This document shows, in pieces, positions 170-801 of a stretch of DNA of 801 bases. Source of the DNA: Escherichia coli. GTDB taxonomy: Bacteria > Pseudomonadota > Gammaproteobacteria > Enterobacterales > Enterobacteriaceae. The position numbers and the translations under genes were made by a program. How positions within the stretch are numbered: the stretch's first letter is position 1; each line of letters opens with the position of its first letter. The notes under the pieces were generated by a model, which was given only the letters and a program-made list of their open reading frames with translations, was not told where the DNA came from and ran no database searches. The DNA is taken from the NCBI RefSeq assembly GCF_003334315.1, contig NZ_QOWR01000129.1. One strand, written 5' to 3'.

Positions 170-197
170 ATCATACACTAAATCAGTAAGTTGGCAG
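170..197 (-). promoter_or_regulatory. Putative insA promoter embedded in IRL (-35-like CTGCCA, -10 TATGAT)
   Basis: On the minus strand, TATGAT lies at 175..170 and a weak -35-like hexamer CTGCCA at 197..192, 16 bp apart. This is about 20 bp upstream of the insA GTG start. The insA promoter is known to sit partly inside IRL; exact hexamer assignment here is my inference. Confidence 0.4.
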
Positions 198-204
198 CAT
201 CACC
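182..204 (-). repeat. IS1 left terminal inverted repeat (IRL), about 23 bp
   Basis: Reverse complement of 182..204 is ggtgatgctgccaacttactgat. It is an imperfect inverted match to 349..371 (ggtaatgactccaacttattgat), as expected for the IRL/IRR pair of IS1. Confidence 0.9.
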
Positions 205-348
205 CGCCGTCTCAATAGCCCGGTTGTTGTATTTAATCAATACAGCCTGAAGACGTTCTGAATATTTCCTCTCCTGCACTACATTGTTTTTTGTACGGGA
301 CTGGATACCGTCATTAATCAGTTTTTCCAGCAGCTCTACCGCCAGATT
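205..348 (-). pseudogene. 144-bp internal gene fragment, in frame with no start or stop; tentatively a type I restriction enzyme R-subunit (HsdR) C-terminal remnant, truncated on both sides by IS1
   Basis: Minus-strand translation from 348 to 205 is NLAVELLEKLINDGIQSRTKNNVVQERKYSERLQAVLIKYNNRAIETA (48 codons, no stop). The ...SERLQ...KYNNR.I... pattern matches my recollection of the conserved C-terminal region of HsdR proteins. The HsdR assignment is from memory, not a search. Confidence 0.45.
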
Positions 349-371
349 GGTAATGACTCCAACTTATTGAT
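349..371 (-). repeat. IS1 right terminal inverted repeat (IRR), about 23 bp
   Basis: ggtaatgactccaacttattgat at 349..371 is the imperfect inverted partner of the IRL at 182..204. The insB stop codon (366..364) lies inside it. Confidence 0.9.
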
Positions 372-801
372 AGTGTTTTATGTTCAGATAATGCCCGATG
401 ACTTTGTCATGCAGCTCCACCGATTTTGAGAACGACAGCGACTTCCGTCCCAGCCGTGCCAGGTGCTGCCTCAGATTCAGGTTATGCCGCTCAATTCGCT
501 GCGTATATCGCTTGCTGATTACGTGCAGCTTTCCCTTCAGGCGGGATTCATACAGCGGCCAGCCATCCGTCATCCATATCACCACGTCAAAGGGTGACAG
601 CAGGCTCATAAGACGCCCCAGCGTCGCCATAGTGCGTTCACCGAATACGTGCGCAACAACCGTCTTCCGGAGCCTGTCATACGCGTAAAACAGCCAGCGC
701 TGGCGCGATTTAGCCCCGACGTATCCCCACTGTTCGTCCATTTCCGCGCAGACGATGACGTCACTGCCCGGCTGTATGCGCGAGGTTACCGACTGCGGCC
801 T
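364..801 (-). CDS. insB: InsB (C-terminal catalytic part of the IS1 InsAB' transposase), 5' partial: reading frame open to the window edge, stop at 366..364
   Basis: The track ORF 364..741 ([16 protein letters not shown]...[15 protein letters not shown]) matches IS1 InsB. The same frame stays open upstream of that Met to position 801 ([25 protein letters not shown]...), as expected because InsB is expressed as a frameshift fusion to InsA and not from this ATG. Acidic residues in DEQWGYV, MTDGW and RIERH are consistent with a DDE-type catalytic triad (exact residue assignment inferred). Confidence 0.93.
786..801 (-). CDS. insA: 3' end of insA of copy B (last 5 codons plus stop), overlapping the insB frame
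   Basis: Minus strand from 800 reads ggc cgc agt cgg taa = GRSR-stop, the InsA C-terminus (...LKNSGRSR). The TAA stop is at 788..786, in the 0 frame relative to the -1 insB frame. The fragment is very short, so confidence is moderate. Confidence 0.6.

Follow-up and report, generated by a model that had tools for sequence, protein, structure and literature searches.

An internal remnant of the type I restriction gene hsdR between two same-orientation IS1 copies in Escherichia coli

The DNA analysed here, referred to throughout as the window, is a stretch of 801 nucleotides from Escherichia coli (assembly GCF_003334315.1, contig NZ_QOWR01000129.1) that consists of a 144-bp gene piece bounded by parts of two copies of the insertion sequence IS1. 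The left 204 bp of IS1 copy #1 occupy positions 1-204 on the minus strand and leave the window at position 1; insA begins within them, and they match IS1 copies of E. coli at 100% identity over all 204 bp. The right 453 bp of IS1 copy #2 (349-801, minus strand) hold the 3' part of insB, match IS1A/IS1B copies at 100% identity over all 453 bp, and leave the window at position 801. The two copies form a direct-orientation pair, both of them and the gene piece being on the minus strand, and the window ends inside each copy. The left inverted repeat (IRL) of copy #1 (182-204, minus strand) and the right inverted repeat (IRR) of copy #2 (349-371, minus strand) both abut the gene piece; the identity of the piece to hsdR stops at 205 on one side, and the hsdR alignment diverges at 349 on the other, where the terminus is shared with the IS1 copies L025 and L026. 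Paired with each other, 182-204 and 349-371 form a 23-nt imperfect inverted repeat, 78% complementary and with 144 nt between its arms, which are drawn from two different IS1 copies. The insA gene of copy #1 starts with a GTG at 149 and reads down to 3, and the translation from 149 to 3, the N-terminus of InsA, matches the NCBIfam IS1/IS1595 zinc-binding domain (E = 5.5e-11) and also transpos_IS1. In copy #2, the ORF at 364-741, stop codon included, is the C-terminal part of InsB, and its translation from 741 to 367 matches NCBIfam NF033558 (transpos_IS1) with 127.9 bits, above the cut-off of 100. The marks of the IS1 family, imperfect inverted repeats of about 23 bp at the termini and the transposase genes insA/insB, are thus both present, and the IS1 parts of the window are ordinary IS1. 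The median E. coli genome has the element at about 11 places, and 7605 records are at least 99% identical to the right piece of copy #2.

Between the two elements, positions 205-348 contain a stop-free minus-strand frame of 48 codons with the translation NLAVELLEKLINDGIQSRTKNNVVQERKYSERLQAVLIKYNNRAIETA, while the remaining five frames contain one to four stops apiece. The chance of 48 codons free of stops is (61/64)^48, or about 0.10 per frame by our own arithmetic, so the frame alone is weak evidence. At the nucleotide level, 144 of 144 positions match a gene annotated as 'type I restriction endonuclease subunit R' (E = 1e-68), and at the protein level the translation matches PF11867 (T1RH-like_C), the type I restriction enzyme R subunit-like C-terminal domain, with E = 3.2e-15 over model positions 167-214 of 329. 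These two E values rule out a chance similarity to hsdR. A search of NCBIfam with the 48 amino acids of 205-348 alone gave no match, as expected, because TIGR00348 spans only residues 10-713 of the parent protein. The piece corresponds to codons 879-926 of the 1044 codons of the parent, a part of the T1RH-like C-terminal domain that amounts to 4.6% of the gene, and all 48 amino acids are identical. An hsdR gene identical to 205-348 over this region is carried by 59 of 5426 complete E. coli genomes, as a single chromosomal copy in each, and in the 59 complete chromosomes the coding sequence over the matching 144 nt is a full-length R subunit.

The earlier note, made from the letters of the window, had described an uninterrupted 48-codon minus-strand frame at 205-348, oriented like the IS elements, and had recognized in one of its motifs the conserved C-terminal region of HsdR. 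Translation reproduces the coordinates, the frame and the strand, the IS1 genes and the hsdR piece all lie on the minus strand, and the motif was correctly read; the HMM comparison of 205..348 (minus strand) with HsdR C-terminal models, which the note had proposed as a check, yields the significant PF11867 match given above. A significant match to an HsdR-specific domain is therefore present, whereas a PD-(D/E)xK nuclease joined in one frame to an SF2 (ResIII/SWI2-SNF2) motor is not found in the window, which holds codons 879-926 only. The start, the stop, the nuclease domain and the motor domain are all absent from the piece between the IS1 copies. The segment 205-348 is a remnant of a member of the HsdR family, without functional membership in it.

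The parent protein, WP_001531245.1, consists of 1044 amino acids and is encoded in strain SA186 at NZ_CP022730.1 3184629-3187763. It scores 621.8 bits against TIGR00348 (hsdR; cut-off 284.55) and 1210 bits over its full length against the PADLOC model REase_I, and its Pfam domains are HSDR_N, ResIII, SWI2_SNF2, T1R_D3-like and T1RH-like_C. Judged by these matches, the parent is a standard, bona fide HsdR. In the intact genomes examined, the gene is part of an integrase island adjoining tRNA-Leu, with the order hsdM, hsdS, DUF4268, hsdR, and its association with hsdM and hsdS is found there. The island of the SA186 type comprises, in order, an integrase gene, a phosphorothioate-dependent HNH endonuclease gene, a gene for a 165-aa hypothetical protein, hsdR, the DUF4268 gene, hsdS, hsdM, a TIR-domain gene and a WYL-type gene. 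The DUF4268 gene (L001 11794-12987) lies within the type I operon, where it separates hsdS from hsdR and its start overlaps the end of hsdS; it matches PDC-S11, a candidate defence family of PADLOC (E = 8.5e-178). Both neighbours of hsdR, the DUF4268 gene and the 165-aa downstream gene, led to intact loci only when they were looked up. The 600 members of the 90%-identity cluster of the parent HsdR carry names from E. coli, Klebsiella and Enterobacter species, and at least 1000 contigs encode the exact E. coli protein, so that the system is common and has already been annotated.

In a pairwise alignment with the intact hsdR of SA186, identity begins at 205 and stops at 348, and the sequence outside these limits is IS1. 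The gene is interrupted between codons 878 and 879 and between codons 926 and 927, and both points coincide with IS1 termini, at the window boundaries 204/205 and 348/349; the proposal that the gene for the R subunit was broken by IS1 is thereby supported. The copy of hsdR in the window is certainly disrupted, and it is non-functional because the IS1 ends cut the fragment from the rest of the gene on both sides. We hold with high confidence that 205-348 is a non-functional internal remnant of hsdR, interrupted by two IS1 copies in the same orientation. Since this hsdR sequence is single copy wherever it is found, the strain is very probably without a functional R subunit for this system. The 144-bp fragment itself does nothing and is debris. 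A mechanical ORF list also contains a chimeric ORF of 33 codons with a GTG start (178-279, minus strand), which is a by-product of the junction and not a gene: 25 hsdR codons (902-926) run into the IRL, ending ..ETA|GDAANLLI*. The same GDAANLLI* read-through tail would end any gene entered by IS1 in the same frame.

The simplest history to account for the arrangement would be that IS1 entered the 3' part of hsdR in two separate insertions, at sites 144 bp from each other. Under such a history, the plus strand beyond the IRL of copy #2 would read CGCCAGATT, then TCGATATGGCATATCGCGGAC, and the sequence before the IRR of copy #1 would end ..CAATCACCTG CGCCGTCTC, or in its longer form ...CTCTTCAATCACCTG CGCCGTCTC. 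The best possible product would be an HsdR protein that ends near residue 881, inside the C-terminal domain, and that would retain the nuclease and SF2 motor domains while missing the last ~160 residues. In EcoR124I, the C-terminal region of HsdR is implicated in binding the HsdM2-HsdS methyltransferase core (PMC2878639). Restriction would be expected to be lost, because the truncated protein misses the distal C-terminal region implicated in HsdS-HsdM docking, and modification would be kept if hsdM and hsdS are intact.

The predicted products and junctions were sought in several collections. IS1 duplicates a target site of about 9 bp. Exact look-ups of the proteins expected from simple insertions, HsdR 1-881 followed by GDAANLLI (9-bp duplication) and HsdR 1-881 followed by VMLPTY (8-bp duplication), found neither on record, and an exact look-up of the 33-aa product of the chimeric ORF showed that it is not recorded as a called gene. 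The missing products constitute weak evidence against simple insertions, because the source genome seems to lie outside the collection. A junction-spanning query returned no match at 80% coverage or more among the 5426 complete E. coli genomes, the exact patterns of the left and right junctions are absent from GTDB species genomes, metagenome contigs and viral contigs, and fragment 205-348 is absent from plasmid and phage collections. A protein search with the fragment plus its read-through returned unrelated short HsdR pieces only. The absence of the junctions from complete E. coli genomes and the identity of the piece to intact alleles would fit recent, lineage-private insertions, where 'recent' is read from 144 bases only.

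The two IS1 copies can be compared with known isoforms of the element. The left piece of copy #1 matches a rarer isoform (L025) at 100% identity and finds identity of at least 99% in only 296 records; at its right end, L025 departs from the right piece of the window at 13 of 455 positions. The common IS1B (L026) matches the right piece of copy #2 at 100% identity, and 8 positions and a gap separate its left end from the left piece of the window. A further isoform, L027, matches the right piece in full and the left piece except at window positions 81, 87 and 136, the last of which is the site of a Ser5Tyr change in the InsA of copy #1. On this evidence the two copies may stem from different donor IS1s, a difference that falls short of demonstration because L027 differs from the combined pieces at only these three positions. 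The best-listed E. coli match to the left end is a 735-bp IS1 copy in strain WCHEC020031 (NZ_CP033401.1, L025 1-1404), which is ~33 bp shorter in mid-element than the standard 768 bp and is located 30 bp downstream of the stop codon of another type I hsdR (WP_001096907.1). Its position beside a type I hsdR is probably a coincidence.

The same island has decayed in another lineage by a different lesion. A 117-aa HsdR C-terminal product, MIEELIQ..., which starts from the GTG of V928, is recorded in 142 contig blocks, and all of the contexts read (e.g. GCA_958334935.1, L008 9300-10400; also L009-L021) show an IS-free deletion. The deletion joins the WYL-type gene to codon ~920 of hsdR, the two sides overlapping by 7 bases where they meet. 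Lost with it are the TIR gene, hsdM, hsdS, the DUF4268 gene and most of hsdR; the 117-aa ORF that it leaves is called as a gene. Islands with this remnant have ~93-94% DNA identity to the SA186 type. As in the window, the same gene of the same island is reduced to a remnant of its C-terminal domain, and the end point of the deletion is only ~7 codons from the insertion site of IS1 copy #1. Unlike the window piece, the 117-aa remnant covers codons ~920-1044, is free of IS elements, and overlaps the piece by only ~21 bases (205-225). The 117-aa product was also considered as a route to the locus of the window, and was set aside since the contexts read show a different lesion in a diverged island. 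From the IS-free deletion in this other lineage it follows that the hsd module of the island has been lost repeatedly and by different routes. In E. coli GCA_045041875.1 (L024 4591-6014), an otherwise intact island has hsdS split into ORFs of 158 and 292 aa and a TIR gene shortened to 300 aa from 325 aa, a further sign of ongoing decay of the defence island.

Other histories can be proposed for the window, and the one that deserves most weight concerns the rest of the gene. An IS1-mediated adjacent deletion, an inversion or recombination between IS1 copies may have removed or relocated the remainder of hsdR, and perhaps hsdM/hsdS with it, leaving the fragment as an orphan; we regard this as a real possibility, at somewhat below even chances. 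IS1 termini face the fragment on both sides, a geometry that permits such events, and the look-ups did not find the proteins that simple insertions would yield, although their absence is uninformative if the collection does not include the source genome. The island of the other lineage, where a clean deletion took hsdM, hsdS, the DUF4268 gene and most of hsdR and left the 117-aa C-terminal remnant, shows that the locus does decay by large deletions, but that deletion has no IS1 at its junction and a different end point. If the fragment were such an orphan, at least one outer flank would be expected to consist of unrelated DNA, and r- m- would replace r- m+ as the predicted phenotype of the strain for this system; what the fragment is, and that hsdR is dead, would be unaffected.

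Two IS1 copies in direct orientation that bracket a segment are the architecture of Tn9, and the window could, on the strength of its direct pair around a short segment, be read as a composite in which IS1-144 bp-IS1 moved as a unit and carried the hsdR piece as a passenger away from the hsd locus. The best matches to the two IS1 pieces, the left one of copy #1 and the right one of copy #2, are different common isoforms, which is in keeping with this account. We nevertheless judge it very improbable: each complete genome with the fragment has it only once, it was not found on plasmid or phage records, a 144-bp passenger with no selectable function gives an element no cause to spread, and a second occurrence of either junction was not found in the complete E. 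coli, GTDB species, metagenome or viral collections. Were it correct, an intact or differently broken hsdR might exist elsewhere. Highly repeated elements are also a classic source of misassembly, and IS1, with its numerous places in E. coli genomes, is such an element, so repeats may in principle have been collapsed or mis-joined through IS1 copies into an arrangement absent from the cell. This is the least credible of the accounts, as hsdR meets an exact IS1 terminus, resolved to the base, at each of the two junctions, which is how real insertions look, and a mis-join normally falls inside a repeat and does not create new junctions between an IS end and a target.

For the preferred history of two separate insertions, a selective interpretation can also be considered, in which loss of the R subunit through paired IS1, with hsdM/hsdS kept, represents a selected r- m+ state in a lineage where IS1 is expanding. 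We consider this unlikely. If true, the barrier to foreign DNA would be lowered while the methylation pattern was kept, and the IS1 pair would be a substrate for recombination that might later delete the piece or rearrange the island.

Among characterized systems, the HsdR of EcoR124I (type IC; PDB 2W00 and related structures) is similar in length to the parent, 1038 against 1044 aa, and aligns with it over the nuclease/motor region, at residues 104-488 and 631-714, with E values of 3e-29 to 3.5e-28. The relationship is only distant, and phmmer gives no alignment over the C-terminal region that holds the fragment. The structural role given to residues 879-926 is therefore an inferred one. With IS1 insertional inactivation and Tn9-type pairs, the window shares the 23-nt inverted repeats, insA/insB and two direct copies around a short segment; it differs from Tn9-type pairs in its passenger, here a functionless 144-bp piece of a gene. 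The window presents an IS-generated pseudogene remnant of a known kind, in a well-annotated type I restriction gene, and is not novel. IS disruption of restriction genes is routine genome decay, and for that reason no open question is made testable by this case. Its significance is local: the strain appears to have lost the restriction activity of one type I system. In annotation, the region can be marked as a pseudogene fragment and not as a gene, and the finding may further be of use in predicting transformability or phage sensitivity.
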